Assembly (NCBI GenBank): GCA_016720935.1
Contig: JADKJP010000004.1
Location: 203,521-267,520 of the forward strand
Direction: 5' to 3'
DNA from: Bacteroidota bacterium
GTDB taxonomy: Bacteria; Bacteroidota; Bacteroidia; AKYH767-A; 2013-40CM-41-45
DNA length: 64,000 bases
The position numbers and the translations under genes are program-made. Positions 4,057 to 63,327 of the stretch are shown here, one piece after another (the first letter of the stretch is position 1; each line of letters opens with the position of its first letter). The notes under the pieces are model-generated. The model worked only from the letters and a program-made list of their open reading frames with translations, was not told where the DNA came from and did no database searches.

Positions 4057-4098
4057 GGGGGGACGAGGGGCGAGGGACGGTGGGACGGTGGGGCGATG
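4057..4098 (+). repeat. G-rich GGGACGR heptamer array (G-quadruplex-prone)
   Basis: ggggggacgaggggcgagggacggtgggacggtggggcga. The same unit family recurs at 16459 and 51645. Confidence 0.8.
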
Positions 4099-4366
4099 TC
4101 ATTATGTCAAAAGTGGGTCTGCCTGTTTACTCGAGAGGATATTACCAAATTTCCAAAAAGGTCTCTGCGAGATGACAAAGCTTTTACTTATCAATATCGT
4201 CCAGATCCCGCCGAACAAGCCTTGGTTCATTTAACCAAATTGGATTGGCGGGATCTGGACGATAAAATCTCATGCTATGCGCTTGTCATCTCGAAGAGAA
4301 CTTTTAGGTCAGTTGAGACTAAATTGGTTTCTTATCTTAAAAACATTGGGGAAAAGGGGCGGGAGT

Positions 4367-4436
4367 TAGTGGAAGTGGAAGTGGAAGTGGAAGTGGAAGT
4401 TTAAAGTGGAAGTGGAAGTGGAAGTTTAAAGTGAAA
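4367..4436 (+). repeat. (GGAAGT)n hexamer array with higher-order structure [(GGAAGT)n TTTAAAGT]x2
   Basis: GGAAGT repeated 5 times, then TTTAAAGT, then GGAAGT 3 times, then TTTAAAGT. It produces the (VE)n tail of the spurious ORF 3928..4404. Confidence 0.85.
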
Positions 4437-4448
4437 GCAAAAATTGGG

Positions 4449-9427: not shown

Positions 9428-9951
9428 ACAAACGAATCAAAAGGATCGCGTTGATTGGTCCTGAATCTACAGGAAAGACAACGCTTGCAGAGCAACTCGC
9501 CAGGCATTATAAAACTGTTTGGATACCCGAATATTCGAGGAACTATGTAGAAAATCTAAACAGGAAATACACCAAAGAAGATATCCTGCTGACCATCCGG
9601 GAGCAATGCGCTGAGGAAGACAGGTTGCTGGAACAGGCCAATAAATTTCTCTTCGCGGATACAGAACCGATTCTGGCGCAAGTGTGGATGATGGATGTTT
9701 ACCATGAAAAGTCCGCCGAAATCGAAAAGCTGATCCAGGAACGAGCCTATGATTTGTACCTGTTACTTTCTCCTGATTTACCCTATGTAAATGATCCTGT
9801 GCGGGAAAACCCTGCACGGCGAGATTTTTTCTTTGATTGGTATAAAAAGGAATTGGAAGAAAGACAGCTGCCCTACCGCGTGATAACAGGCACAGGAGAA
9901 TCACGACTTGCTATCGCGATCAAAGAGATTGAATCACTCCGGGAAAATTAG
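9424..9951 (+). CDS. NadR-type ribosylnicotinamide-kinase-like P-loop ATPase
   Basis: Walker A GPESTGKTTL; ATGA start/stop overlap with pnuC (translational coupling). The ORF-track start at 9394 lies inside pnuC; start at 9424 preferred. Confidence 0.7.
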   Translation: MNKRIKRIALIGPESTGKTTLAEQLARHYKTVWIPEYSRNYVENLNRKYTKEDILLTIREQCAEEDRLLEQANKFLFADTEPILAQVWMMDVYHEKSAEIEKLIQERAYDLYLLLSPDLPYVNDPVRENPARRDFFFDWYKKELEERQLPYRVITGTGESRLAIAIKEIESLREN

Positions 9952-10469: not shown

Positions 10470-10575
10470 AGTAAGCCGCTAAGGTTGCACAAGTTAAAAA
10501 ATTACCCGTTCATGAAAAATTACTTATGAAGTATTTTGCAAAAAAAATTCAGTCAAGGAATTTTTGATACTTTTG

Positions 10576-10662
10576 TACCATCAAACTGGGGTGCTCCTGA
10601 TCTACGGGGCTGAGATTATACCCATCGAACCTGTTCAGGGTAATGCCTGCGAAGGGAACGAG
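10576..10662 (+). promoter_or_regulatory. TPP (thiamine pyrophosphate) riboswitch, THI-box
   Basis: ACUGGGGUGCUCCUGAUCUACGGGGCUGAGAUUAUACCCAUCGAACCUGUUCAGGGUAAUGCCUGCGAAGGGAAC matches the THI-box consensus (CUGGGGUGC, GCUGAGA, ACCC, GAACCUG, UAAUGCC.GCG.AGGGAA). It is preceded by a TActTTTG -7 promoter motif and is 65 nt upstream of the TonB-dependent receptor ATG. Confidence 0.85.
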
Positions 10663-10727
10663 GTAAACAAATTATGGCGCGTTCACACCCCATGGTGCGT
10701 GCATTGTTCATCCTTAAATAATAAATC

Positions 10728-13151
10728 ATGAAGAAGGTATTTTTTGCAGGCCGGCACTGCCGGAATTTGCTCCTGATCATTTTCGTTTGTCTTCAGGCAA
10801 ATTCATTTGCACAACAAAACATCACCGGAGTTATCCTTGACGATGAAAACAATCAGCCTGTCGCAGGCGCTTCAATTCATATTGAAGGAACTTTCTTCAC
10901 CATTCTGAGCAATGATGAAGGAAAATTTTCTTTTCTGGATTATAAAAAAGGAGAAGCCGATCTGACCATCACGCACATCTCCTATGAAACAAAAAAAATC
11001 CATGTTCTGAGTAAAGATTCACCACAAAGTATTCGCATGAGCGTGAAGAATTATTTATCGGAAGAAGTCACCATCACTGCAACACGCATGGATGGCAGAA
11101 ATGGTTTCGCTTACAGCAATCAGAATAAAGAAGAACTGGAGAAGAAAAATCTAGGACAGGATTTACCCTTCCTGCTGAACATGACCCCTTCGCTTGTTGT
11201 CACTTCCGATGCCGGAAACGGTGTCGGTTATACCGGACTGCGCATCCGTGGAAGCGACGCGAGCAGGATCAATGTGACACTTAACGGAATTCCAGTGAAC
11301 GACCCGGAATCTCACCAGGTGTATTGGGTGGATCTTCCTGACCTTGCTTCTTCAGCGGAAAACATCCAGGTGCAACGCGGTGTGGGAACCTCCACCAATG
11401 GCGCCGGAGCTTTCGGTGGCAGTGTAAATATTCAATCCAGCGCTTTCCAGTCGAAAGCATTCGGACAAGTGAACAGCGCTGTTGGCTCCTTTAATACATG
11501 GAAAAACACCGTCTCCTTTGGAAGCGGATTAATCGACAATAAATTTTCTATCGATGGAAGATTTTCGAAAATAAATTCGGGCGGTTATATCGACCGATCA
11601 AAAAGTGATTTGCATTCGATGTATTTATCGGGCGGATATTATGGAAAGAAAAGTTCGCTGCGCGGACTCATTTTATCCGGTAAAGAAAAAACCTACCAGG
11701 CCTGGTACGGCGTTCCTGAGGATTCTTTGAGTTCAAATCCGAGTTTCAATCCGGCAGGCTTGTATACTGATGCCGCTGGAAATATTTTGTATTACGAAAA
11801 TCAAACCGACAATTATCAGCAGGACTATTACCAGTTGATTCATGCGATTGAACTCAGTCCCTCCCTGCTTTTAAATACAGCTGTTCATTACACAAAAGGA
11901 AAAGGATACTATGAAGAATACAGTGTTGGTGACGCTTTCTCCAAATACGGACTTCCTGATATTTACACTGCAACAGACACCATCAGCAGTTCTGATTTCA
12001 TTCGCAGACGATGGCTCAACAACGATTTCTACGGACTCACTGCCAATCTTCATTATGAGAAAGAAAAATGGAATTTCATTCTCGGACTTTGCGCTAATGA
12101 ATACGATGGAAAACATTTCGGTGAAGTGATTTGGGCAAAAGACGGATCTGTCCCTAATGGAAAACTGGAATACTACAGTGATGACGCTGTTAAAAAAGAA
12201 AGCAGCGGATTCTTAAAACTCGGCGGAACTTTTGCGCATGGAATTTATGTGTATGCAGATCTGCAGTCGCGTTTTGTTTCCTATCAATTTATCGGTTACG
12301 ACAGAGACGGAAAAAATCTTCCTCAAAAAACAAACTCAGCTTTTTTTAATCCGAAAGCCGGAATGTCCTGGCAGATCAATGAAAAACAACAGTTCTGTTT
12401 GTCGGTGGCTGTTGCTCACAAAGAACCGGTTCGTGACGATTATGTGAATTCATCGCCCGATAGTCGTCCGAAAGCGGAAGCACTCACCGATCTTGAAGCT
12501 GGTTACCGTTTTAGTCTGAAGAAATTTTTTCTTTCCGCAAATTTCTATCACATGGCATACACTGACCAGCTGATTCTCACCGGAGAAATCAATGATGTCG
12601 GTGAATACACAAGACAAAATGTCGCCGACAGCTACCGACAAGGAATAGAATTTGAAGGAGGCTGGTCGGTGTCGGAGAAAGTGAAGTTGTCGGCTAATGC
12701 TACATTCAGCAAAAATAAAATCAAACATTTCGAAGAATACATCGACAACTACGACGATTATACGCAGCAAAGAAATGATTACGACAACACAGACATTTCA
12801 TTTTCACCCTCACTCATCAGCGCGGGAATTATCAATTGGACACCGATAAAAAATCTCGAATTTGAATTCACCGGAAAATACATTGGCAAACAATTTCTGG
12901 ACAACACCATGAATGAAAAAAGAAAGCTCGATGCTTATGTTGTCAATGACGCGAGAATTGCCTGGACCATCAAACCAAAAGGCATCAGCGAAATCGGTTT
13001 TACTCTCGCCGTCAACAACCTCTTTGATCAACGCTATTCATCGAACGGTTATACCTATAGTTATATCTACGGCGGAAGCGCTTCTACTTTTAATTACTAT
13101 TTCCCGCAAGCAGGGGTGACGGTGATGTTTGGAATAAAAGCACGAATCTAG
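10728..13151 (+). CDS. TonB-dependent outer-membrane receptor (SusC-like, riboswitch-controlled; probable thiamine uptake)
   Basis: Signal peptide, carboxypeptidase-regulatory-like N-terminal domain, TonB box and plug, 22-strand barrel, C-terminal aromatic residue. A TPP riboswitch lies in its leader. Confidence 0.85.
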   Translation: MKKVFFAGRHCRNLLLIIFVCLQANSFAQQNITGVILDDENNQPVAGASIHIEGTFFTILSNDEGKFSFLDYKKGEADLTITHISYETKKIHVLSKDSPQSIRMSVKNYLSEEVTITATRMDGRNGFAYSNQNKEELEKKNLGQDLPFLLNMTPSLVVTSDAGNGVGYTGLRIRGSDASRINVTLNGIPVNDPESHQVYWVDLPDLASSAENIQVQRGVGTSTNGAGAFGGSVNIQSSAFQSKAFGQVNSAVGSFNTWKNTVSFGSGLIDNKFSIDGRFSKINSGGYIDRSKSDLHSMYLSGGYYGKKSSLRGLILSGKEKTYQAWYGVPEDSLSSNPSFNPAGLYTDAAGNILYYENQTDNYQQDYYQLIHAIELSPSLLLNTAVHYTKGKGYYEEYSVGDAFSKYGLPDIYTATDTISSSDFIRRRWLNNDFYGLTANLHYEKEKWNFILGLCANEYDGKHFGEVIWAKDGSVPNGKLEYYSDDAVKKESSGFLKLGGTFAHGIYVYADLQSRFVSYQFIGYDRDGKNLPQKTNSAFFNPKAGMSWQINEKQQFCLSVAVAHKEPVRDDYVNSSPDSRPKAEALTDLEAGYRFSLKKFFLSANFYHMAYTDQLILTGEINDVGEYTRQNVADSYRQGIEFEGGWSVSEKVKLSANATFSKNKIKHFEEYIDNYDDYTQQRNDYDNTDISFSPSLISAGIINWTPIKNLEFEFTGKYIGKQFLDNTMNEKRKLDAYVVNDARIAWTIKPKGISEIGFTLAVNNLFDQRYSSNGYTYSYIYGGSASTFNYYFPQAGVTVMFGIKARI

Positions 13152-13159
13152 TTTCGGGA

Positions 13160-13208
13160 TATGAGTTATGAGTTGAGAGTTAGAATTATGAATTATGAAT
13201 TATGAGTG
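13160..13208 (+). repeat. (ATGAGTT)n heptamer array
   Basis: atgagtt atgagtt gagagtt agaatt atgaatt atgaatt atgagtg. Starts 9 nt after the receptor stop codon. The same array occurs at 25587. Confidence 0.85.
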
Positions 13209-13217
13209 CCATAATTT

Positions 13218-13313
13218 CTAAGCACTAACCACTAACCTCTAAGCACTAAGCACCAACCACCAAGCACCAAGCACTAACCTCTAAGCACTAAGCACCAACC
13301 ACTAAGCACTAAT
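13218..13313 (+). repeat. (CTAAGCA/CTAACCA/CCAAGCA)n heptamer array, ~13.7 units, perfectly 7-nt periodic
   Basis: ctaagca ctaacca ctaacct ctaagca ctaagca ccaacca ccaagca ccaagca ctaacct ctaagca ctaagca ccaacca ctaagca ctaa. Confidence 0.9.
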
Positions 13314-13920
13314 TCTTACAAGCGCAACTCGGCGACATATAAATCTTCGCTGTCTTCACGACAAGTGAATCGATGCGGGCTTGTTGTTCATCGGAAAAAA
13401 GAATTCCTCTTAGTTCGAGTACTTTCAGATTGCCGAGATTACCAATTTCATCGGGAACATCAGCGAGTTCATTGTCCCAGAGTTCGAGCACTTCCAGACT
13501 TTGCAGTTTACCAATGCTTGCCGGCAATGATTCAAGAACATTGCGGTTGAGTCCGAGGTATTCAAGTTTGATCAGGTTACCGATTTCTTCCGGAAGAGAA
13601 TCCAGTTTGTTGTTAGCCAGATTCAATCGTTTCAATTGTGTAAGCTGTCCGATTTCAGGAGGCAAAGAATGCAACCTGTTTTTGCTCAGATCCAGTTCGC
13701 GGAGGTTTTTGAAAAGCAGAATTTCAGCCGGGAAACTATCGAGTTTTGTTTTGCTCAGGTTCAGGCGAAAAACCTGATCAGGATTTTCTTTAGCCTCTCT
13801 GATGCTACGATAAACATAGGCTGAATCTCTGAAAACCGCATGCGTCTCCTGAGCACTGGAAGTGAATACCGGTGCAAGAAGGTAAAATATGCTCAAAAGG
13901 CAGTTTTTCAGGAAATTCAA
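13309..13920 (-). CDS. Secreted leucine-rich repeat (LRR) protein
   Basis: Signal peptide plus seven consecutive 23-aa LxxLxLxxNxLxxLPxxIGxLxx repeats. Confidence 0.75.
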   Translation of the reverse strand: MNFLKNCLLSIFYLLAPVFTSSAQETHAVFRDSAYVYRSIREAKENPDQVFRLNLSKTKLDSFPAEILLFKNLRELDLSKNRLHSLPPEIGQLTQLKRLNLANNKLDSLPEEIGNLIKLEYLGLNRNVLESLPASIGKLQSLEVLELWDNELADVPDEIGNLGNLKVLELRGILFSDEQQARIDSLVVKTAKIYMSPSCACKN

Positions 13921-15071: not shown

Positions 15072-16400
15072 ATGTCAGGAAATAAAATTACCATGTCGGG
15101 CGGAAAGTTAACGGTTCCCGATCAACCTATTATTCCATTTATTGAAGGCGATGGCACCGGTCCGGATATCTGGCGTGCTTCTGTGCGTGTTTTGGATGCA
15201 GCGGTAGAAAAAGCGTATGCAGGCAAAAAGAAGATTGAATGGAAAGAAGTTCTTGCCGGTGAAAAATCGTTCAAGAAAACAGGAAACTGGTTGCCCGATG
15301 AAACGCTCGACGCATTCAAAGAATATCTCGTTGGTATTAAAGGTCCGCTGACAACTCCTGTTGGCGGAGGTATCCGTTCCCTCAATGTGGCATTACGTCA
15401 GATTCTTGATTTGTACGTTTGTCTGCGTCCCGTGCGTTGGTTTGAAGGTGTTCCTTCTCCGGTGAAAAATCCGGGTGCTGTTGACATGGTTATTTTCCGT
15501 GAGAACACAGAAGATATCTACGCGGGAATTGAATTTGTTGCCGGTTCACCGGAAGCACAAAAGGTTTTGGATTTTATCGCGAAAGAATTTCCGAAAGATT
15601 TCAATAAGATTCGTTTTGGTACAGAAGAAAAAGGCAAAGGCTTTTTACAGGCTGCCGGTTCTTCAGATAGCACAGCGGTTGCCGTTGGAATCGGTATTAA
15701 ACCGGTTTCAAAAATTGGTTCCGAGCGTTTGATCAGCTCAGCGATCGATTACGCGATTCTTCACAAAAAGAAATCGGTGACCATCGTTCACAAAGGCAAT
15801 ATCATGAAATACACTGAAGGTGCATTCCGTGACTGGGGCTATGCTGTCGCTGAAAAGAAATATGGCGACAAGGTTTACACATGGTCGACCTGGGAGAAAA
15901 CTAAAAAAGAAAAAGGTGAAGCTGCAGCTAATGAAGAACAAAAAGCGGCTTTGGCAGCAGGAAGAATTCTTGTGAAAGATTCCATTGCTGACATCACTCT
16001 GCAACAGGTACTCACTCGTCCGGAAGATTTTGATGTGATCGCAACACTCAATCTGAATGGAGATTACCTCAGTGACGCATTGGCTGCACAAGTTGGTGGA
16101 ATCGGTATTGCTCCGGGAGCGAATATCAACTATGTGACCGGACATGCGATCTTCGAAGCTACTCACGGTACAGCGCCAAAATATGCGGATCAGGACAAAG
16201 TAAATCCGGGTTCAGTAATTCTTTCCGGAGCGATGATGCTGGAACACCTCGGATGGATCGAAGCCGCTAACCTTATCTACAAGAGCATGGAAAAAAGCAT
16301 CGCGAAGAAACGTGTTACTTACGATTTCGAACGCCAGATGCAGGGAGCTACACTGCTGAAATGCTCTGAATTCGGAGATGAATTAATCAGCAATATGTAA
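15072..16400 (+). CDS. icd: NADP-dependent isocitrate dehydrogenase
   Basis: Full-length homodimeric IDH architecture ([27 protein letters not shown]). Confidence 0.9.
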
Positions 16401-16423
16401 TTTATCCTTCCTTATTTTTTTAA

Positions 16424-16452
16424 GAGCCTCGCGAATGCGGGGCTTTTTTTTT
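16424..16452 (+). terminator. Rho-independent terminator after icd
   Basis: AGCCTCGC-GAAT-GCGGGGCT stem (one G-U pair) followed by a T-run of 10. Confidence 0.75.
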
Positions 16453-16458
16453 AGAGAC

Positions 16459-16680
16459 AGGGGGCGAGGGACGGGTGACGGGGGATGAACGATTAGGCAG
16501 GAGAGAGAAAATATAACAATGAAATGGCCCATTCAAAAATAAACAATACTCAAGAAGTTTTCTCGAAACCTAATAACCTAATAACTCAATAACTCAATAA
16601 CTTAGTAACTTAATAACTCAATAACAAATCGTCCCCCGCCCCTTCTTCATGAACAACCCGGAACTCAGAACTCGAAACCC
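16459..16680 (+). repeat. Composite repeat element: G-rich GGGACGR block, (YYAATAAC)x7 octamer array, inverted C-rich block, (GAACTCR) heptamers
   Basis: 16461 ggggcgagggacg is inverted-complementary (12 of 13) to 16629 cgtcccccgcccc. The octamer array ctaataac x2, tcaataac x2, ttagtaac, ttaataac, tcaataac spans 16569-16626. gaactcagaactcgaaac (16661-78) is the reverse orientation of the GTTCYGA family. Confidence 0.8.
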
Positions 16681-16736
16681 TACACCATTACCATATTAAC
16701 TGAATTTCCTTATTTTCGCTCAGCCAAAGAAATGAA

Positions 16737-18257
16737 ATGCCGCTGATCGGAGCTCTTATTAAACAGGGATTGAAACTGGGTACACGCGTCAAACTGCGTG
16801 ATTATACTCCTATTCAACACCAGCGTAAGGAATTACGTAAACTCATGCGAAAAGCGGAGCATACCGCTTTTGGCAATCATTACGGTTTTAGCAAGATGCT
16901 TGACTCCCGGAATTTTGTCAGGGCATTCCAGAATGACGTTCCGGTTTTCAATTACAACTCTATTTTTCAGAACTGGTGGCATCGTTGTCTGGCCGAAGAA
17001 GAAAATGTCTGCTGGCCGGGACATGTGAATTATTTCGCCCTGAGTTCAGGCACTTCTGAATCCGCAAGCAAACACATTCCTGTCACCAACGACATGGTGA
17101 AATCCTTGCGCAAAGCAAGCATTCGTCAGATTATCACACTCAGCAAATACGATTTACCGGCTTCTTTTTTTGAAAAAGGAATTCTCTGGCTTGGCGGATC
17201 AACACAACTCAACAGACACGGTGGATATTACGAAGGTGATGTGAGCGGAATTTCCGCCCGACGTGTTCCGATCTGGTTTCAGCAATATTACAAACCCGGA
17301 AAAAAAATTTCCAAGGAGAAAGACTGGAATATCAAACTCGAAGAAATTACCAAGCAGGCCGACAAATGGGATATCGGAATTATTACCGGTGTTCCTTCAT
17401 GGGTTCAGCTGCTGATGGAAAAAGTAATCGAACGTTACAAGTTAAAAAGCATCCACGATATTTGGCCCAATCTCCAGGTAGTCGCTCATGGTGGTGTTTC
17501 TTTCGAGCCATACCGCAGAAGCTTTGAGCGTTTCTTTTCCAAACCTGTACACTTCATCGAAATGTATCCTGCTTCGGAAGGCTTCATCGCGTTCCAGGCA
17601 GAACCGGATGTACGTTACATGAAACTCATCCTGAACAACGGACTGTTTTATGAATTCGTTCCTTTCAACGATGAGAACTTCGACGCGAATGGAGAACTAA
17701 AACAAAACCCTCAGGCATTACTGGTGAATGAAGTAAAAGAAGGTGTTGATTACGCCATTCTAATCAGCACCTGCGCCGGAGCATGGAGATATATGATTGG
17801 TGATGTTGTTCGATTTGTCAACAAAGAGAACTGCGAAATCGTCATTAGCGGAAGAACAAAACATTTCCTCAGTCTGGTTGGCGAACATCTCAGTGTCGAT
17901 AACATGAACAAAGCTGTCGAATATGTCGCGGAACAACTCAATGTTGAAATCCCCGAATTCACTGTCGCCGGAATTCCTTACGAAGGATCTTTTGCCCATC
18001 ACTGGTTTCTTGGTGTGAATGGAAATCTGGACAGAGCCCAGGCCAAACTTTTACTCGATAAAAAACTAAAAGAACTGAACGACGATTACGCCGTTGAACG
18101 TGTCTCTGCATTGAAAGAAGTCATTATCGAAACACTTCCTGCAATTAAGTTCTACAACTACATGAGCAACAACGGCAGGCTCGGCGGACAAAACAAATTC
18201 CCCCGCGTACTCAAAGCTTCGCAGTTGGAGGAGTGGAAGCAATATATTGCTGGCTAG
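16737..18257 (+). CDS. GH3-family (auxin-responsive GH3-like) acyl-adenylate-forming enzyme homologue
   Basis: Length and motifs (YALSSGTSE, FIEMYPASEGF) typical of bacterial GH3 auxin-responsive promoter family proteins. Confidence 0.7.
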   Translation: MPLIGALIKQGLKLGTRVKLRDYTPIQHQRKELRKLMRKAEHTAFGNHYGFSKMLDSRNFVRAFQNDVPVFNYNSIFQNWWHRCLAEEENVCWPGHVNYFALSSGTSESASKHIPVTNDMVKSLRKASIRQIITLSKYDLPASFFEKGILWLGGSTQLNRHGGYYEGDVSGISARRVPIWFQQYYKPGKKISKEKDWNIKLEEITKQADKWDIGIITGVPSWVQLLMEKVIERYKLKSIHDIWPNLQVVAHGGVSFEPYRRSFERFFSKPVHFIEMYPASEGFIAFQAEPDVRYMKLILNNGLFYEFVPFNDENFDANGELKQNPQALLVNEVKEGVDYAILISTCAGAWRYMIGDVVRFVNKENCEIVISGRTKHFLSLVGEHLSVDNMNKAVEYVAEQLNVEIPEFTVAGIPYEGSFAHHWFLGVNGNLDRAQAKLLLDKKLKELNDDYAVERVSALKEVIIETLPAIKFYNYMSNNGRLGGQNKFPRVLKASQLEEWKQYIAG

Positions 18258-18292
18258 TTCCGGGTTCCGGGTTCGAAGTTCAAAGTTTGAGC
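18258..18292 (+). repeat. (GTTCYRR)n heptamer array (GTTCCGG x2, GTTCGAA, GTTCAAA, GTTTGAG)
   Basis: Begins at the first nucleotide after the GH3 stop codon and is nearly identical to the array at 59591-59615. Its first 12 nt (gggttccgggtt) form an inverted repeat with 18343-18354 (aacccggaaccc). Confidence 0.85.
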
Positions 18293-18307
18293 AGATCTCA
18301 ATTCTCC

Positions 18308-18360
18308 CAACCACTAAGCACTAACCACTAACCACTAACCACAAACCCGGAACCCAAAAA
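18308..18360 (+). repeat. (CCACTAA/CTAAGCA)n CA-rich heptamer array ending at the lysE-family ATG
   Basis: ccaacca ctaagca ctaacca ctaacca ctaacca caaaccc ggaaccc aaaaa|ATG. Confidence 0.85.
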
Positions 18361-18966
18361 ATGCTCGAACCCATTTTCAGCGGATTTACTTTTGGACTGT
18401 TGCTGGCAATCATGCTGGGGCCGGTGTTTTTTGCTTTGCTGCAAACGAGTCTGCACGAAGGGTTCAAGGCGGGTGTACACATGGCAATTGGCGTATTCAT
18501 CAGTGACGCGACAGTCATCGCCGTTTGTTATTTTTTCGCTGCTCAGCTTAACCTCATGGAACAAAACAAAACCCTGATGGGTTGGATCGGAGGGATCTTG
18601 CTGATTGGATTTGGTGTTGTCAATTTCATCAAGAAAATAAAAGTAAAAGAAGTGGATGATGACAAAAAAACCGTCCATGCCAAATTTATGTTGCAGGGAT
18701 TTCTCCTCAACATCATGAACCCGGCGGTTTTACTTTTCTGGCTGAGTGTAATCAGTATGGTGAGTCTGAAATCCTATAACCGGAGCGAAGAGGCTGCATT
18801 CTTTGCTTCTGTTTTATTGACAGTCTTTGGGACTGATTTACTGAAATCATTTGTCGCTAACCGTATTAAAAATCTTTTAAAAGCCAATGTCATCCTTTGG
18901 GTGAACCGTGTCATCGGTTGCGCACTGATTGGATTTGGCGTTCACATGATCTGGAAGATTATCTGA
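18361..18966 (+). CDS. LysE/RhtB-family amino-acid exporter
   Basis: Six-TM 201-aa protein with the LysE-type translocator N-terminal motif (FGLLLAIMLGPVFFALLQTS). Confidence 0.7.
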   Translation: MLEPIFSGFTFGLLLAIMLGPVFFALLQTSLHEGFKAGVHMAIGVFISDATVIAVCYFFAAQLNLMEQNKTLMGWIGGILLIGFGVVNFIKKIKVKEVDDDKKTVHAKFMLQGFLLNIMNPAVLLFWLSVISMVSLKSYNRSEEAAFFASVLLTVFGTDLLKSFVANRIKNLLKANVILWVNRVIGCALIGFGVHMIWKII

Positions 18967-19613: not shown

Positions 19614-20759
19614 CTAACTACTCTTCACCTCTTCCTTCCCATCCGCGTGTTTGGCAAACCTGCTTTTTTCACGCGGGTGAACCTGATCATATCTCGGCCA
19701 TGGCCAGCCACCGAATTGAGTGCGGTGATAATCTTCAAAAGCCTGGTTGATTTCTTCCTTGGTGTTCATCACAAATGGTCCGTATTGAATGACGGTTTCA
19801 CCAATCGGTTTTCCTTGGAGCAATAAGATACTAGTCGGCTGATCACCTGCCTGAACCAATACATCCATATTGGCTTCGAGTTCCACCGCATTGTATTTGG
19901 GAATGGAAGTACCTGCAAGATTGAGCGATTCACCTTCATAGAAATAAACGGTACGGTTAATTCCTGCAGAAGCTTTTGGCAAAGTCCAGACCGCGCCCGG
20001 ATTCATTTTAATATTCCATATAGCAACTTCATTACTCTCTGTCGCGGCCCAGGAATCCGGCGGAGGCGCAGGAGCTTTGATACTTCCGATCTTACCGGCA
20101 ATCACTTCAACTGTTGTTGATTTTCCGTTATTGTCTTTGTGAACATAACGTGGAATCATATCCTGCCATAACATTTTAAAATGCGGCTCAACCATTTTAT
20201 TTTTCTTCGGAAGATTCAGCCAGATCTGAAAAAGCTCCATCGGATTTTCCTTCTTTTCACTCAGCAGTGGAAACATTTCCGAATGCTGAACACCTTTGCC
20301 TGCAGTCATCCATTGCACATCACCATTACCATATCTTCCTGCCGCACCCATGGAATCCGCGTGATCCACGATACCTTGTCTGACCACCGTAATCGTTTCA
20401 AATCCCCGGTGAGGATGACCGGGAAAACCGGGAACTTTTTTCCCGTGATACATTCTGAAACCATCCTTGATGATAAAATCATCGCCGAGATTTCTTCCCT
20501 GCATCGATGTAACCGGACCCATCTCCGCATTTCCTTTTGGAAATTTGTCTTCATGATGAACACAAAACAAAAACGGATCTGCGGTGTCCCACATAAATCC
20601 AAGGGGTTTGATATTTTTTATCGGGTTCATTTTCTTGTCCTCAGGATTGATAGATTCTTTGATTGAATTTGAAATTCCGTTGAAAGGAACAGCAATTGCT
20701 GACACCAGTCCGAGAGTTACACGGGAGATGAAGCTTCTTCGCTTTAAGGGTTCGCTCAT
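19614..20759 (-). CDS. Pirin-family (bicupin) protein with twin-arginine (Tat) signal peptide
   Basis: N-terminal KRRSFISRVTLGL Tat motif; bicupin pirin motifs (HPHRGFETIT..., two cupin halves). Confidence 0.8.
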   Translation of the reverse strand: MSEPLKRRSFISRVTLGLVSAIAVPFNGISNSIKESINPEDKKMNPIKNIKPLGFMWDTADPFLFCVHHEDKFPKGNAEMGPVTSMQGRNLGDDFIIKDGFRMYHGKKVPGFPGHPHRGFETITVVRQGIVDHADSMGAAGRYGNGDVQWMTAGKGVQHSEMFPLLSEKKENPMELFQIWLNLPKKNKMVEPHFKMLWQDMIPRYVHKDNNGKSTTVEVIAGKIGSIKAPAPPPDSWAATESNEVAIWNIKMNPGAVWTLPKASAGINRTVYFYEGESLNLAGTSIPKYNAVELEANMDVLVQAGDQPTSILLLQGKPIGETVIQYGPFVMNTKEEINQAFEDYHRTQFGGWPWPRYDQVHPREKSRFAKHADGKEEVKSS

Positions 20760-20865
20760 TGGATTAGGATTGTTGGTTGGGGAGCTTGAAATTACAAAAT
20801 TTTAATTATTAAAACTGCGAGGCAGGATCGTTCAATTCAACCAGCCTGATTTTAACATTTGATGA

Positions 20866-20920
20866 TGAGTGGAAGAGTAAGTGTAAGTGCAAGTGCAAGT
20901 CTCAAGTTTGGGTGTTTAAA
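20866..20920 (+). repeat. (AAGTGCA/GTGGAAG)-type heptamer array
   Basis: gatgagt ggaagag taagtgt aagtgca agtgcaa gtctcaa gtttggg tgtttaa. Confidence 0.7.
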
Positions 20921-20947
20921 GAAATGAAAGATTTTCAATCCAAAGGG

Positions 20948-20990
20948 TACCAAAAACCAACAACCAAAAACTAATAACCAATAAAAAAAG
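20948..20990 (+). repeat. (ACCAAMA)n heptamer array abutting the tRNA-Val(GAC) 3' end
   Basis: accaaaa accaaca accaaaa actaata accaata aaaaaag, immediately followed by the tRNA at 20991. Confidence 0.8.
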
Positions 20991-21065
20991 TGGACGCTAC
21001 AGGATTCGAACCTGTGACCCCTACCCTGTCAAGGTAATGCTCTAAACCAACTGAGCTAAGCGTCC
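20991..21065 (-). tRNA. tRNA-Val (anticodon GAC)
   Basis: Reverse complement GGACGCTTAGCTCAGTTGGTTTAGAGCATTACCTTGACAGGGTAGGGGTCACAGGTTCGAATCCTGTAGCGTCCA folds as a cloverleaf with a 7-bp acceptor stem, anticodon loop TTGACAG and T-loop TTCGAAT. Confidence 0.85.
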
Positions 21066-22750: not shown

Positions 22751-22816
22751 CTAAGCACCAAGCACCAAGCACCAAGCATCAACACCTAACACCTAACAAC
22801 TAACAACTAACAACCA
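22751..22816 (+). repeat. (CTAAGCA/CCAAGCA/CTAACAA)n heptamer array ending 6 nt before the coaD ATG
   Basis: ctaagca ccaagca ccaagca ccaagca tcaacac ctaacac ctaacaa ctaacaa ctaacaa ccactcc. Confidence 0.9.
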
Positions 22817-25588: not shown

Positions 25589-25632
25589 TGAGTTATGAGT
25601 TTTGAATTATGAATTATGAGTTATGAGTTATT
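25587..25632 (+). repeat. (ATGAGTT/ATGAATT)n heptamer array overlapping the pyrE stop codon
   Basis: gtgagtt atgagtt ttgaatt atgaatt atgagtt atgagtt att. Confidence 0.85.
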
Positions 25633-25793
25633 TTGCTTCTGGTTCACCGTTATTTAATTTTAATTGAATAAAATAGCTAACCTAAAAAACCTAGAGCACT
25701 CAGAAATTACCCTTCACTAAACACCAGAGTCCAGACTATTACTTTCGCAAATCACAGACACCACACACGCACTTCACAAACACTCCCTCAACA

Positions 25794-42686: not shown

Positions 42687-43196
42687 TTATTTTCGTGTAT
42701 ATGAAATATGCCATAACGATTTCCAGTTGAGTCGGTCAGTAGAGCTCTGCCAGTCCCACTCAAAACTGTCTTTTTTTATCGAAAAGAATATCATACGTCT
42801 GTAATTCTTCTGTCCGTTTTTTGTCACAGTTTCATCTCCTTCAAAAATCACCGTATCGCCTTCTTTTCTCCCGGTGAACACGAGATAAGCTCCCGCATTA
42901 TCCACCCAGGTTTGTCTCCATTTCGATGTTGTCGAATCAAACATGCTCCAGCTTTTACCAATAAAGGTTCCATCACTGTAGTGAAAATTTTCTTCAATCA
43001 CTTTGTTGTCAAGAATCCGGGAAATATGATTTGTCGCCTGAACGGAATCACCCCAGACACAATTCCAGTCACCCAGCCAGAAATCCATGAGGTCTTTTTG
43101 CATGGCTGGTATTTCAGCTTTTGTCATGATGCAAAGAAGCAGGGAGAGGAGGGTGAGTGTGAGTGTGAGTGTGAGTGTGCGTGTGAGTGTGGGCAT
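42687..43196 (-). CDS. Hypothetical protein; N-terminus encoded by a hexanucleotide repeat gives (TL)n
   Basis: M1 reading gives MPTLTRTLTLTLTLTLLSLLLCIMTKAEI.... The alternative start at MTKAEI would lack a signal peptide. The start lies 6 nt downstream of the stop of the beta-helix gene. Confidence 0.5.
   Translation of the reverse strand: MPTLTRTLTLTLTLTLLSLLLCIMTKAEIPAMQKDLMDFWLGDWNCVWGDSVQATNHISRILDNKVIEENFHYSDGTFIGKSWSMFDSTTSKWRQTWVDNAGAYLVFTGRKEGDTVIFEGDETVTKNGQKNYRRMIFFSIKKDSFEWDWQSSTDRLNWKSLWHISYTRK
43150..43193. repeat. (GTGAGT)n hexanucleotide microsatellite (ACACTC on the coding strand)
   Basis: ggtgagtgtgagtgtgagtgtgagtgtgcgtgtgagtgtggg: six-plus units, in frame, at the 5' end of the 42687..43196 gene. 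Confidence 0.85.
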
Positions 43197-46174: not shown

Positions 46175-46249
46175 GGGAGCTTAGCTCAGCTGGTTCAGAG
46201 CATCTGCCTTACAAGCAGAGGGTCACAGGTTCGAACCCTGTAGCTCCCA
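46175..46249 (+). tRNA. tRNA-Val (anticodon UAC)
   Basis: GGGAGCTTAGCTCAGCTGGTTCAGAGCATCTGCCTTACAAGCAGAGGGTCACAGGTTCGAACCCTGTAGCTCCCA forms a canonical cloverleaf with anticodon loop CTTACAA. A rho-independent terminator hairpin AAAGCCCACC-ATAA-GGTGGGTTTT follows. Confidence 0.9.
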
Positions 46250-46520
46250 CTTCAAACAAAGCCCACCATAAGGTGGGTTTTGTCGTTTTAAGTAAATTCA
46301 TTTTGTTCACCATCATAAAAGCAACAACAGAGCATCCCGGTTTATAACCGGGAGGGTCACAGGTTCGAACCCTGTAGCTCCCACTTCAAACAAAGCCCAC
46401 CACTTGGTGGGTTTTGTCGTTTTAAGTAAATTCATTTTGTTCACCATCATAAAAGCAACAACAGAGCATCCCGGTTTATAACCGGGAGGGTCACAGGTTC
46501 GAACCCTGTAGCTCCCACTT
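46250..46520 (+). repeat. Tandem ~120-bp units, each carrying a tRNA-Val 3'-half fragment (altered anticodon arm) plus terminator hairpin plus spacer
   Basis: Units at about 46329-46448 and 46464-46520 repeat AGAGCATCCCGGTTTATAACCGGGAGGGTCACAGGTTCGAACCCTGTAGCTCCCAC and the terminator. A 14-bp 5' fragment (gggagcttagctca) lies at 46141-46154. Confidence 0.85.
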
Positions 46521-46637
46521 CAAAACAAAACATTTATCCTTGTAAAAATACACCGCTCATATTATCTTTTAGACCCTGATCAATTTAATTGTGTCCAGAC
46601 GAAAAATAAGGGACAAAACCGAAAAGAGTAGCAGCCC

Positions 46638-51729: not shown

Positions 51730-51765
51730 GCACCAACCACTAAGCACCAACCACCAGGCACTAGT
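51730..51765 (+). repeat. (CCAACCA/CTAAGCA)-type heptamer array abutting the exbB stop codon
   Basis: caccaaccactaagcaccaaccaccaggcactag; the CA-rich strand is antisense to the exb operon here. Confidence 0.8.
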
Positions 51766-57588: not shown

Positions 57589-57921
57589 TCAGGAATTAAT
57601 CCAATTTTGGATTTTGCTTGTGACGTTCAGAATCCCGTTTTGATTTTTTTCAAGATTTTTCTGAAATGCGGCGGTCAGATCTACGCCGGTTTGATTGGCC
57701 AGACAGATCAACACAAACAATACATCAGCAAGTTCATCGCCCAGATCTTTTCCAAGATCCGATTCTTTTGAAGATTGCTCACCGTATTTCCTGGCAATAA
57801 TTCGGGCTACCTCTCCTACTTCTTCGGTAAGCATAGCCATATTGGTGAGCTCATTAAAATAACGAACGCCATGAGTTTTGATCCACTGGTCTACTTGGGC
57901 TTGTGCTTCGGTGAGGTCCAT
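57589..57921 (-). CDS. MazG-like nucleotide pyrophosphohydrolase (single-domain)
   Basis: EExGExxE motif region (LTEEVGEVARIIARKYGEQS..., DELADVLFVLICLAN). Confidence 0.7.
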   Translation of the reverse strand: MDLTEAQAQVDQWIKTHGVRYFNELTNMAMLTEEVGEVARIIARKYGEQSSKESDLGKDLGDELADVLFVLICLANQTGVDLTAAFQKNLEKNQNGILNVTSKIQNWINS

Positions 57922-57976
57922 GTTAGTTGTTAGTTTTTAGTGGTTGGTGCTTAGTGGTTGGTGCTTGGTGCTTAGA
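57922..57976 (-). repeat. (CTAAGCA/CCAACCA/CTAACAA)n heptamer array (sense to mazG) ending at its ATG
   Basis: On the minus strand: tctaagca ccaagca ccaacca ctaagca ccaacca ctaaaaa ctaacaa ctaac|ATG. Confidence 0.85.
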
Positions 57977-59473: not shown

Positions 59474-59540
59474 GGCACGAAAGTAAAAAAAGCAAGTGGA
59501 GAATTCACCTGAATTTCGTGAGAAATAACTTAGATTTGCG

Positions 59541-59636
59541 CTTCTCGGGTTCTGAGTTCTGAGTTCTGAGTTCCGAGTTCTGAGTTCCGAGTTCAAGGTT
59601 CGAAGTTCAATGTTTGAATTGTTCGAGGATCGAGGT
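59541..59636 (+). repeat. (GTTCTGA/GTTCCGA/GTTCGAA/GTTCAAT)n heptamer array, ~13 units
   Basis: ttctcgg gttctga gttctga gttctga gttccga gttctga gttccga gttcaag gttcgaa gttcaat gtttgaa ...; the 3' part is nearly identical to 18272-18292. Confidence 0.9.
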
Positions 59637-59667
59637 TAATGAATGCTAGAAGTATCAGGTAAAAATT

Positions 59668-59718
59668 CTAAGCACTAAGCACTAACCACCAAGCACTAAC
59701 CACCAAGCACCAAGCACC
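59668..59718 (+). repeat. (CTAAGCA/CTAACCA/CCAAGCA)n heptamer array ending at the gldA-like ATG
   Basis: ctaagca ctaagca ctaacca ccaagca ctaacca ccaagca ccaagca ccaaaaa aa|ATG. Confidence 0.9.
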
Positions 59719-59725
59719 AAAAAAA

Positions 59726-61771: not shown

Positions 61772-62019
61772 TTCCCCTGCTTTTGGGTATTTTTTCCTCT
61801 TGAATTCAATGTATTTTAGAGTCTCCTGCGACTCCTGAATCAAAGTAATTTCTTACTTTTGCAGCCGAGTGGAAAGATTTGATTAGCTGCCTGTATCAGT
61901 AGCAATATTGCAACCACGGTAAAAAATGCTAAAGCTGGACTAAAGCTTTTGCACCCGCGATCAAACCCTCCCGATTCCTTGTTTTACAAAAATAGTCTTT
62001 AAAAAACCTACAGAGAACC

Positions 62020-63327
62020 ATGTCTTATTTGTTCACCTCAGAATCCGTTTCCGAAGGGCATCCCGACAAAGTAGCGGACCAGATTTCAGATGCATTGATT
62101 GATTATTTCCTGGCCTATGATCCCAAGTCAAAAGTGGCTTGTGAAACACTTGTTACTACCGGACAGGTTGTCCTTGCAGGGGAAGTAAAATCGGAGGCTT
62201 ACCTCGATGTTCAGGATATCGCACGTGATGTAATCCGTAAAATCGGTTACACCAAAAGCGAATATATGTTCGAGGCCAACTCCTGCGGAATTTTCAGCGC
62301 GATTCACGAACAATCACCGGATATCAACCAGGGTGTAGATAAAAAGGATCCATGGAAACAAGGTGCCGGTGATCAGGGTATGATGTTCGGTTATGCCAGC
62401 AAAGAAACGGATACCTACATGCCTTTGCCACTGGAACTCGCACACCTTTTGTTGCGTGAACTTGCTGCTATCCGCAAAGAAGGCAAGACAATGACTTACC
62501 TCCGTCCGGATGCTAAGTCACAGGTGACGATCGAATACGGCGACGACAATCAACCTATCCGTATTGACACGATTGTGATTTCCACACAACATGACGATTT
62601 CGAAAAGGATGCCGCTATGTTGAAGAAAATTAAAGAAGATGTTATCAATATCCTCGTGCCACGTGTGATGAAAAAATTACCAAAACGTGTGCAGGCATTG
62701 TTCAATGATAAAATCAAATACCATGTGAATCCGACCGGTAAATTTGTGATCGGTGGACCACACGGTGATACAGGACTTACAGGACGTAAAATTATCGTGG
62801 ATACATACGGTGGAAAAGGTGCTCACGGTGGTGGTGCATTCTCCGGCAAAGATCCGTCAAAAGTGGACCGTTCCGCGGCATATGCCACACGTCACATTGC
62901 CAAAAACATGGTTGCAGCAGGTTTGTGCGACGAAGTACTTGTACAGGTTGCTTATGCTATCGGTGTCGCTGAGCCTGTTGGATTGTATGTAAATACTTAT
63001 GGTACTGCTAAAGTTCAAATGAACGACGGAGAAATTGCTCAAAAGATTCGCAAGATTTTTGACATGCGCCCTTACGCGATTGAACAGCGTTTTAATCTTC
63101 GTACCCCAATTTATCTTGAGACTGCAGCATATGGTCACATGGGCCGCGAAACCAAGGTGGTGGAAAAAATCTTCAACAAAGGGAAGAAGAATGAGAAACG
63201 TATCAAGGTTAAATTATTCCCTTGGGAAGAACTTAACTACGTAACTCGTTTGAAAGATCTTTTCGTTACAGAAAAAAAGAGCGCCAAGAAAACCAACGCG
63301 AAACAAGCGCAGCTTGAAATGGTATAA
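62020..63327 (+). CDS. metK: S-adenosylmethionine synthetase (methionine adenosyltransferase)
   Basis: [20 protein letters not shown] motifs; includes a ~30-aa Lys-rich C-terminal tail. Confidence 0.95.

Follow-up and report, generated by a model that had tools for sequence, protein, structure and literature searches.

A polar pair of heptamer repeat arrays at the GH3-lysE junction of an uncultured Bacteroidota bacterium and the RNA stem predicted between its ends

We analyzed a 64-kb stretch of DNA from an uncultured wastewater Bacteroidota bacterium (referred to here as the window; G+C content, 42.8%), focusing on the gap between two co-oriented genes, GH3 and lysE. The gap measures exactly 103 nt from the TAG stop codon of GH3 to the ATG of lysE and is occupied by two tandem arrays of 7-nt units, a G/T-rich one beside the stop codon and a C/A-rich one beside the start codon, whose outermost units form a perfect 12-bp inverted repeat. 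We consider it probable that this cassette is a polar pair of heptamer simple sequence repeat (SSR) arrays that originated in place by slippage, and that a stem between its two ends couples lysE to GH3. [quoted passage not shown]

Two heptamer arrays fill the GH3-lysE gap

The left array starts on the last base of the GH3 stop codon. Tandem Repeats Finder (TRF) called 2.6 perfect copies of GTTCCGG in it (period 7, 100% match, positions 18257 to 18274), after which the unit decays through GTTCGAA, GTTCAAA, and GTTTGAG to about position 18291. A spacer of about 17 nt, unique by BLAST, leads to the right array, in which TRF called 5.6 copies of AACCACT (period 7, 90% match, positions 18309 to 18347) and which continues in register to position 18357, ending 3 nt before the lysE ATG. 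The GC skew is +0.17 in the T-rich left array and −0.73 in the right one. The claim of the earlier note that the repeats fill the whole gap from stop to start codon is therefore borne out, with a gap of exactly 18258 to 18360 and arrays spanning 18257 to 18357. The upstream gene encodes a member of the amido-synthetase family rather than a glycoside hydrolase, as indicated by matches of its protein to Pfam models PF03321, PF23571, and PF23572.

The left arm, GGGTTCCGGGTT, and the right arm, AACCCGGAACCC, are exact reverse complements, and the order across the gap is TAG-TTCC-GGGTTCCGGGTT...AACCCGGAACCC-AAAAA-ATG. The exact pair reported earlier was thus confirmed, at positions that had been set 2 nt (left) and 1 nt (right) too low. 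The complementarity extends imperfectly to 19 nt (84%; positions 18262 to 18280 and 18337 to 18355). We regard the inverted repeat as real and nonrandom, because none of 5,000 dinucleotide-preserving shuffles of the 103 nt reached 12 bp (shuffle maximum, 11) and because the 12-mer occurs four times in the window with at most one mismatch, versus 0.18 occurrences expected. What had been overlooked is that both arms are in-register units of the 7-nt arrays: the supposed terminal inverted repeat consists of the first two units of the left array (GGGUUCCGGGUU) set against the final 1.7 units on the right (AACCCGGAACCC).

Arrays of this kind are abundant in the window. TRF returned 45 rows for the window as a whole; counted at a stricter score, 21 rows had a period of 7, 14, or 21, versus a mean of 0.6 (maximum, 3) in 20 composition-preserving block shuffles. 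Merging left about 16 arrays, 10 of them with a period of 7, and nearly all of these arrays are intergenic. A composite architecture recurs among them (Table 1), in which a G/T-rich array lying 0 to 13 nt past a stop codon is followed by a short unique spacer and then by a C/A-rich, G-poor array, which frequently ends 0 to 9 nt ahead of the next ATG. The units fall into four families, each present together with its complement: GAGTTCN/NGAACTC, GGGACGA/TCGTCCC, TGGTTAG/CTAACCA, and GAGTTAT/ATAACTC. The right array of the cassette belongs to a C[CT]AA[GC]CA family that also includes the arrays at 13217 to 13312, 22753 to 22786, 57921 to 57973 (minus strand), and 59668 to 59720, and the left array matches the end of the array at 59585 to 59617 with 88% identity over 33 nt (BLAST).

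The placement of the two array types relative to genes is polar. According to longest-ORF (open reading frame) gene calls, all 10 arrays lying nearest to a start codon have a C-rich sense strand, and 6 of the 8 lying nearest to a stop codon are G-rich; the G-rich versions of the four families always lie on the stop side. Among adjacent array pairs called by TRF, the G-rich array precedes the C-rich one in 5 of 5 pairs of the window, 4 of 4 pairs on L009, a locus from a closely related metagenome-assembled genome (MAG), and about 20 of 22 pairs at other Bacteroidota loci, i.e., in about 29 of 31 pairs overall. This G-then-C order reads identically from both strands. The window's six intergenic regions between convergent genes are all free of arrays.

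Table 1. Coordinates of the GH3-lysE junction, of similar composites in the window, and of hairpin-type array pairs in other Bacteroidota MAGs (loci L079, L013, and L010)
Feature	Position	Strand	Description	Source
GH3	16737-18257	+	Acyl-acid amido synthetase-like protein, 506 aa; TAG stop codon at 18255-18257	ORF list, Pfam
Left G/T-rich heptamer array	18257-18291	+	GTTCCGG GTTCCGG GTTCGAA GTTCAAA GTTTGAG	TRF and sequence reading
Left arm, GGGTTCCGGGTT	18262-18273	+	Half of the perfect 12-bp inverted repeat	
Candidate internal promoter, AAAGTTTG	18281-18288	+	Match to TAnnTTTG with one mismatch	
Spacer, CAGATCTCAATTCTCCC	18292-18308	+	About 17 nt, unique	BLAST
Right C/A-rich, G-poor heptamer array	18309-18357	+	AACCACT AAGCACT AACCACT AACCACT AACCACA AACCCGG AACCCAA	
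Right arm, AACCCGGAACCC	18344-18355	+	Final 1.7 units of its array; spans −17 to −6 from the lysE ATG	
lysE	18361-18966	+	LysE-type exporter, 201 aa, PF01810; start context CCCAAAAAATG	
Composite array pairs	13152-13372; 18258-18360; 25589-25793; 59549-59725	+	G/T-rich array, spacer, C/A-rich array	
Composite array pairs	58058-57922; 51761-51615	−	G/T-rich array, spacer, C/A-rich array	
Hairpin-type pairs, L079	790-965; 12150-12360; 14770-15035; 16695-16890			
Hairpin-type pair, L013	9855-9930			
Hairpin-type pair, L010	16150-16240			

Turnover of the junction in strains and relatives

The order of GH3 and lysE is kept in relatives of the organism, as judged from synteny. At about 70% identity (loci L012 to L017), the stop codon of GH3 and the start codon of lysE are adjacent or overlap, with about 0 to 15 nt at the junction. 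Among closer relatives, the junction is 51 nt long and free of repeats in L008 (91% identity), about 115 nt long and free of arrays in L007 (93%), and about 150 nt long in L009, whose GH3 is 92% identical and whose junction carries (GGTATTA)5 after the stop codon; L009 contains nine arrays in 21.5 kb. None of these junctions could be aligned with the gap of the window, except for a vague C/A-rich stretch before the ATG. In the TonB-receptor spacer (13152 to 13372), the arrays consist of TATGAGT and CTAAGCA units in the window and of TAGAAAA and ACTAACA units in L009, and behind them lies a unique segment that is conserved. In such orthologous spacers, the position and polarity of the arrays persist while the unit sequence turns over.

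Variation within the species was assessed on contigs that encode identical GH3 or LysE proteins, which come from wastewater and other metagenomes and include the NCBI MAG GCA_016721635.1; the best genome matches are MAGs labeled Bacteroidota or "Flavobacteriales." Eleven of these contigs, with seven haplotypes, cover the gap, and all 11 contain the cassette. The right arm, AACCCGGAACCC, is invariant in all 11, and the left arm takes three forms (GTTCCGG GTTCCGG, GTTCCGG GTTCGAG, and GTTCCGA GTTCCGG). A single GTTCCGGGTT core is retained in every one of these forms, displaced by one register of 7 nt, and a stem of at least 10 bp therefore survives via the register shift. Strains also differ in the right array, by swaps between AACCACT and AAGCACT, by an insertion of CAC, and by one whole extra 7-nt unit. 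Diversity in the gap is 0.057 per column, versus 0.012 and 0.023 per coding site in GH3 and lysE, respectively, where all changes are synonymous. Five population contigs begin or end inside the C/A-rich array, the kind of break that a repeat occurring at many loci should produce.

These comparisons bear directly on the proposal that the cassette is a MITE, i.e., a 94-nt nonautonomous element that ends in 12-bp terminal inverted repeats and would have entered the GH3-lysE junction, which we find very improbable and have rejected. The perfect inverted repeat does lie at the very ends of the insert, distant relatives do lack any insert at this junction, and the five contigs broken inside the right array indicate that this array is repeated elsewhere in the genome. 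The repeat that breaks the assemblies, however, is the C[CT]AA[GC]CA array and not the cassette. No target-site duplication is present at either boundary, whether this is drawn at the 12-bp repeat or at an extended repeat of 16 nt (flanks, GCTAGTTCC on the left and AAAAAATG on the right). Further copies, for which the earlier note had proposed a search, were not found either: in 1.41 Mb of Bacteroidota loci, which comprise, among others, 64 kb from the organism's own genome and 62 kb from relatives with 91 to 93% identity, a pair of the 12-mers with at most one mismatch occurs only at the orthologous junction. In BLAST searches, the full unit with its spacer (18275 to 18310) matched only the orthologous junction of the same species, and the two halves matched different arrays independently, namely, those at 13218 to 13309, 57922 to 57961, and 59668 to 59703, as well as, in reverse orientation, G-side arrays of L009, for the right half and the one at 59585 to 59617 for the left half. 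The putative terminal repeats are array units that shift register among strains, and no relative has a clean empty site; the codons simply adjoin at about 70% identity, and unrelated fillers of 51 to 150 nt take the place of the cassette at 91 to 93%.

The same pair of 12-mers is found far outside this species. A scan of metagenome contigs with the pattern GGGTTCCGGGTT-N50-80-AACCCGGAACCC matched at least 120 contigs (L087 to L206); those listed mostly have a G+C content of 54 to 72% and come from soil or rhizosphere samples, and their 12-mers sit inside (GGGTTCN)n ... (NGAACCC)n inverted arrays. We rejected these contigs as copies of the cassette, since they belong to other, mostly high-GC organisms and share GGTTC-type repeats but no common core, a further point against a mobile element. 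They show instead that different phyla repeatedly carry inverted heptamer arrays of the GGTTC type. At loci with callable genes, the soil GGTTC pairs lie 6 to 30 nt from stop codons, and among the matches listed 14 are located between convergent, 15 between tandem, and 6 between divergent genes. Array pairs in these listed contigs that had not been ascertained through the pattern show the G-then-C order in 18 cases versus 4 with the opposite order. The listed contigs also hold inverted pairs of other heptamers, including AGTGCTT/AAGCACT and GGGATTC/GAATCCC.

In other Bacteroidota MAGs, array pairs were observed that are perfect inverted copies of each other, e.g., GTGAGAG../..CTCTCAC and GGCAAGG/CCTTGCC. 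These hairpin-type pairs (Table 1) each use a locus-specific heptamer, always have the G-rich arm first, and have arms that mirror each other's unit variants. Their predicted folding energies range from −37 to −190 kcal/mol, with z scores of −9 to −23 except for one pair at −4.6 (L079, −90 to −190 kcal/mol and z = −9 to −23; L013, z = −10.9; L010, z = −4.6 and −11.7). Most of them adjoin stop codons and lie 40 to 70 nt from the next start codon. For these hairpin-type pairs of related lineages, as for the soil GGTTC pairs, a role as terminator or mRNA stabilizer seems likely.

The window contains further repeats. In the spacer between icd and GH3 (16455 to 16685), GGGGGCGAGGGACG (near 16460) and CGTCCCCCGCCCC (near 16628) form a second bracketing complementarity, which encloses an 8-mer array, (AATAACTC)7, followed by AACCCGGAACTCAGAACTCGAAACCC (minimum free energy [MFE] z = −2.4); strains differ in this spacer by one 8-nt unit. 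On the minus strand at 20860 to 20990, the array architecture is found downstream of tRNA-Val(GAC) (20990 to 21065, minus strand), with an RNA gene in place of the stop codon: a G/U-rich array of the UUGGUUU type is followed by a spacer and a C-rich hexamer array (CACUUG/CACUUA), which lies about 109 nt upstream of the start of a pirin gene at 20759. L009 has an equivalent arrangement at 16380 to 16700. A hexamer array, (GAGTGT)7, at 43149 to 43191 occupies the 5′ end of a called minus-strand ORF (42687 to 43196) and either encodes a His/Thr-type dipeptide repeat or is a C-rich (ACACTC) leader with the true start codon downstream. At 46175 to 46529, tRNA-Val(TAC) (46175 to 46250) is followed by two more 134-nt direct repeats, each comprising a copy of the 3′ half of the tRNA (GAGGGTCACAGGTTCGAACCCTGTAGCTCCCAC) and a hairpin (TRF period 134, 2.3 copies, 97% match); they resemble stacked attachment-site remnants of tRNA-integrated elements. 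Between the arrays at 4060 to 4092 and 4368 to 4437 lies a nested long palindrome (4146 to 4315), whose 33-nt arms (82% complementarity) enclose a perfect 18-bp inverted repeat (4195 to 4212 and 4247 to 4264). Its predicted RNA fold has an energy of −80.4 kcal/mol (z = −8.75), and the palindrome had no further copy in the loci compared and no Rfam match at the gathering threshold. This palindrome is a better candidate for a foldback element or a structured RNA than the GH3-lysE cassette, and the 102-aa ORF overlapping it (4096 to 4404) is probably spurious. Finally, two riboswitches were found, each with an exact TAnnTTTG motif just upstream: a thiamine pyrophosphate (TPP) riboswitch at 10577 to 10674 (motif at 10568), upstream of the TonB-dependent receptor gene at 10728 to 13151, and a long-loop S-adenosylmethionine (SAM-II) riboswitch at 61863 to 61942 (motif at 61854), upstream of the ORF at 62020 to 63327.

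A predicted stem at the lysE start and the explanations weighed

In both the MFE and the centroid structures, the 12-bp stem is predicted to close the cassette, with z = −2.8 relative to dinucleotide shuffles and z = −3.8 relative to mononucleotide shuffles; the predicted energy is −22.9 kcal/mol for the duplex of the two arms and −16.3 kcal/mol for the 10-bp core. The earlier note had mentioned a stem in the intercistronic RNA as its alternative, and this idea stands as a prediction, with the core of at least 10 bp kept in all haplotypes. Rfam yielded no match at the gathering threshold in the region and none at an E value of ≤1 for 18150 to 18450. The terminator scan found nothing in 18258 to 18360, though it detected the genuine terminator at 16422 to 16447, and the scan for sigma-70 promoters found none in the gap. 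TAnnTTTG is the −7 promoter box of Bacteroidota, and no exact copy of it occurs inside 18258 to 18360. Given that neither a terminator nor a consensus promoter is predicted there, the junction is likely transcribed within a GH3-lysE mRNA.

The model that we favor combines these features as follows. The arrays would have arisen, and would continue to turn over, in place via replication slippage and unit conversion, at what was formerly a tight operon junction. In the mRNA, the G-poor array would offer an unstructured landing zone to ribosomes that initiate without Shine-Dalgarno (SD) pairing, and GGGUUCCGGGUU would pair with AACCCGGAACCC, forming a stem that runs from 4 nt past the GH3 stop codon to 5 nt before the lysE AUG and keeps the initiation region of lysE locked. 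By covering and melting the 5′ arm, a ribosome that terminates on GH3 would open the lysE start, and the translation of lysE could stay coupled to that of GH3 despite the 103-nt insertion.

Initiation in Bacteroidetes proceeds without SD pairing and is tuned by mRNA structure and by an A at position −3 (PMC6847099). For 56 genes, we calculated how much energy it takes to open positions −20 to +12. Where a C-rich array abuts the ATG (five genes), the opening energies were 1.9 to 6.6 kcal/mol, versus a median of 8.5 kcal/mol for 48 others (one-sided Mann-Whitney P = 0.0012); G-poor arrays thus coincide with initiation regions that are predicted to be open. The lysE gene, with A at −1 to −6, is exceptional, since positions −17 to −6 are taken up by the right arm: its opening energy of 15.9 to 16.5 kcal/mol ranks 2nd of 56, i.e., as the second most occluded. 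This value is predicted to fall to 7.4 kcal/mol when the left arm is shuffled, to 6.2 to 6.5 kcal/mol for transcripts starting at 18290 to 18300, and to 10.0, 9.4, and 7.0 kcal/mol with the RNA covered up to 18265, 18268, and 18271, respectively, by a ribosome stationed at the GH3 stop codon. Across all haplotypes, the opening energy is 12.8 to 17.4 kcal/mol.

Several observations weigh against this model. The stem and the lock at the GH3-lysE junction come from folding predictions, in which the stem spans a loop of 70 nt and the ensemble frequency of the MFE structure is only 4%. Pairing between the two arrays is not a general property of the window, as five of the six other pairs fold no better than mononucleotide shuffles (z = −0.2 to +1.6), the exception being the spacer at 16455 to 16685 (z = −2.4). 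Partner arrays mostly stem from different unit families and therefore have only short complementarity (12 bp in this case), and the stem could be a by-product that arises when both arrays are drawn from a vocabulary containing the reverse complements of its own units. Compensatory changes were not observed in the population contigs: the left arms of L207, L002, and L211 and of L208 break the 12-mer with the right side unchanged, and they are rescued solely by the 7-nt register shift. The stem is not conserved in the other species compared, whose junction sequences are unrelated. Diversity in the gap is roughly at the level of synonymous sites and therefore gives no sign of purifying selection; with no covariation, about neutral diversity, and few haplotypes, the population data carry no signal of selection on the stem. 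Upstream of GH3, arrays lie between a terminator and a conserved promoter-like block and are therefore not always part of the mature mRNA. The polarity tallies relative to start and stop codons, finally, rest on crude longest-ORF gene calls.

The main alternative is that the cassette is a neutral by-product, that is, filler made by slippage in which the 12-bp match results from GGTTCNN and NNGAACC both being part of the vocabulary. Given the absence of covariation, of cross-species conservation, and of a population sign of selection, we regard this as possible, if unlikely. It agrees with the closure of the four unit families under reverse complement, with the occurrence of AACCCGGAACTC on its own upstream of GH3 (16655 to 16666), with the neutral level of diversity and the uncompensated changes of the left arm, with the lack of structure in most array pairs of the window, and with the published studies of such repeats, which assigned them no function. 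The strict strand polarity and the low opening energies of array-led genes, however, are hard to obtain from slippage alone. Complementarity, moreover, falls on the outermost units of each array, at distances of 4 nt from the stop and 5 nt from the start codon, the right arm is the same in all 11 contigs and the 10-bp core is present in every left haplotype, and the shuffles never reached a match of this length. A different possibility, which we doubt, is that AAAGTTTG acts as a −7 box that drives lysE alone, so that the C/A-rich array would be an unstructured 5′ untranslated region (UTR) of ∼65 nt and the left arm would lie upstream of the transcription start, making the stem irrelevant. In this organism, TAnnTTTG boxes do precede genes, riboswitches, and a tRNA (e.g., 10568, 46119, and 61854), nAnnTTTG motifs occur at 18281, ∼59609, and, on the minus strand, ∼4110 and ∼51720, each time close to where the G-side array ends or within the spacer (a tally made by eye only), and the starts at 18290 to 18300 mentioned above would leave lysE with an open initiation region. 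Against such a promoter stand the negative scan for sigma-70 promoters and the missing exact box in the gap, the absence of a convincing −33 TTG at the right spacing (TTC is found there), and the lack of enrichment of TAnnTTTG across the window (52 observed versus 51.9 expected). At the 59549/59668 pair, an exact TAGATTTG box (59531 to 59538) precedes both arrays, which therefore both lie in the 5′ UTR, and the adjacent or overlapping GH3 and lysE genes of relatives indicate an operon.

It is improbable, in our view, that the stem is a 3′-end hairpin of the GH3 message, acting as a terminator or as an mRNA stabilizer similar to repetitive extragenic palindromes (REPs). The stem does begin 4 nt past the GH3 stop codon, and most hairpin-type pairs of L079, L013, and L010 as well as the soil GGTTC pairs lie near stop codons, the latter also between convergent genes. 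At the GH3-lysE junction, however, the stem is only 12 bp over a 70-nt loop, it is followed by AAAAAATG with no U tract, and the terminator scan was negative; 5 nt separate its 3′ arm from the lysE ATG, too few to accommodate an independent promoter and leader, and the convergent intergenic regions of the window are free of arrays. We also give little credence to the broadest conceivable reading, namely, that the array pairs, rather than being passive products of slippage, form a modular RNA toolkit installed or maintained by an active, sequence-specific process. If this were true, the toolkit would draw on the four complement-closed unit families that recur at many loci, with G/U-rich versions behind stop codons and C/A-rich versions as leaders, and it would comprise cis locks such as the GH3-lysE stem, coupling translation across an expanded junction, and trans pairing of G-side arrays in 3′ regions with the (CUAACCA)n leaders of other operons, for which the (UGGUUAG)n array after the gene ending at 51761 and L009 positions 9750 to 9820 would be candidates; the result would be a genome-wide posttranscriptional network in an SD-less phylum.

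Comparison with known systems

The cassette shares with MITEs its size of about 100 nt, its intergenic location, and its terminal inverted repeats, but it has no target-site duplication, no multicopy family with common internal sequence in the loci compared, and no clean empty site, and its supposed terminal repeats shift register between strains. For annotators, this means that terminal inverted repeats built of tandem-repeat units should not be called MITEs. REPs are conserved imperfect palindromes of 20 to 40 nt that occur in hundreds of copies and are associated with a RAYT transposase. Like REPs and bacterial interspersed mosaic elements (BIMEs), the array pairs are intergenic or intercistronic, can form hairpins, are transcribed (in our case, by prediction), and often lie just past stop codons; unlike them, the cassette has no conserved palindromic unit, only 7-nt tandem units, and no such unit is common to the array loci of the window. 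Inhibitory intercistronic stems that are opened by ribosomes and thereby couple translation operate in RNA phage MS2 and in several Escherichia coli operons. The predicted stem resembles these in having its 5′ arm within reach of a ribosome at the stop codon and its 3′ arm in the downstream initiation region; it differs in that Bacteroidota lack SD-led initiation and in that it is built from repeat units, not from a conserved regulatory sequence.

Short tandemly repeated repetitive (STRR) heptamers of cyanobacteria belong to the class of heptanucleotide repeats. According to Mrazek et al. (2007), a study that both PMC4679880 and PMC4692102 cite, heptanucleotides are the most overrepresented class of long SSRs in many bacterial genomes, and polymerase slippage was proposed to generate long SSRs. 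As far as they are represented in those two papers, such surveys of long SSRs and STRRs address the abundance of repeats, without gene-relative polarity or stems.

The closest known counterparts are the GGGAATC and GGGGAYT heptamer SSRs of Xanthomonas and Nostoc (Rehm 2015; PMC4692102). These are found at many intergenic loci as imperfect tandem arrays whose length ranges from 2 to about 26 units, with about 185 arrays of the GGGAATC type per Xanthomonas genome; their G-rich strand is the coding one within 50 bp past stop codons and the noncoding one within 50 bp before start codons, and 70 to 75 convergent inverted pairs per genome are capable of forming stem-loops. They are transcribed, vary in length and sequence between close relatives at a kept position, and have neither a link to insertion sequences or other mobile elements nor an assigned function (PMC4692102). 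The arrays of the window are similar in their 7-nt units, with at least two per array, in their intergenic location, in their polarity relative to stop and start codons, in their convergent inverted pairs, and in their strain variation at a kept position. They differ in phylum and units, in that partner arrays mostly belong to different families, and in that the C-rich arrays often reach right up to the ATG. The G-quadruplex explanation raised for the Xanthomonas and Nostoc repeats (Rehm 2015) is possible only for the GGGACGA family and was rejected for GTTCCGG, AACCACT, TATGAGT, and GGTATTA.

Similarly, MacGregor (2015; PMC4679880) described forward-oriented TAACTGA heptamer repeats that immediately precede start codons in Beggiatoaceae, cyanobacteria, and five Bacteroidetes, the last including Flexibacter litoralis and Gramella forsetii, alongside other heptamer repeats. 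A role in translation initiation was suggested for them, their relatives have shorter, repeat-free spacers, and assemblies break within the repeats (PMC4679880). The arrays studied here likewise precede start codons, have relatives with repeat-free junctions, and terminate contigs, but the unit of the cassette is a different one, and MacGregor 2015 describes neither a paired G-then-C architecture nor a stem between arrays.

The cassette thus has every descriptive feature of the class defined by these two studies and is a member of it from a new lineage, with new units. Since the class was already known from Xanthomonas, cyanobacteria, Beggiatoaceae, and a few Bacteroidetes, the cassette by itself is one more example. 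That the same polarity is shared by this Bacteroidota lineage, its relatives, and unrelated soil contigs argues for a general constraint rather than a quirk of one lineage. The predicted coincidence of G-poor arrays with open initiation regions, in a phylum that does without SD pairing, offers a testable function for the class, and the GH3-lysE junction is a compact and mutable test case for a translational lock that would be made of repeat units and opened by the upstream ribosome.

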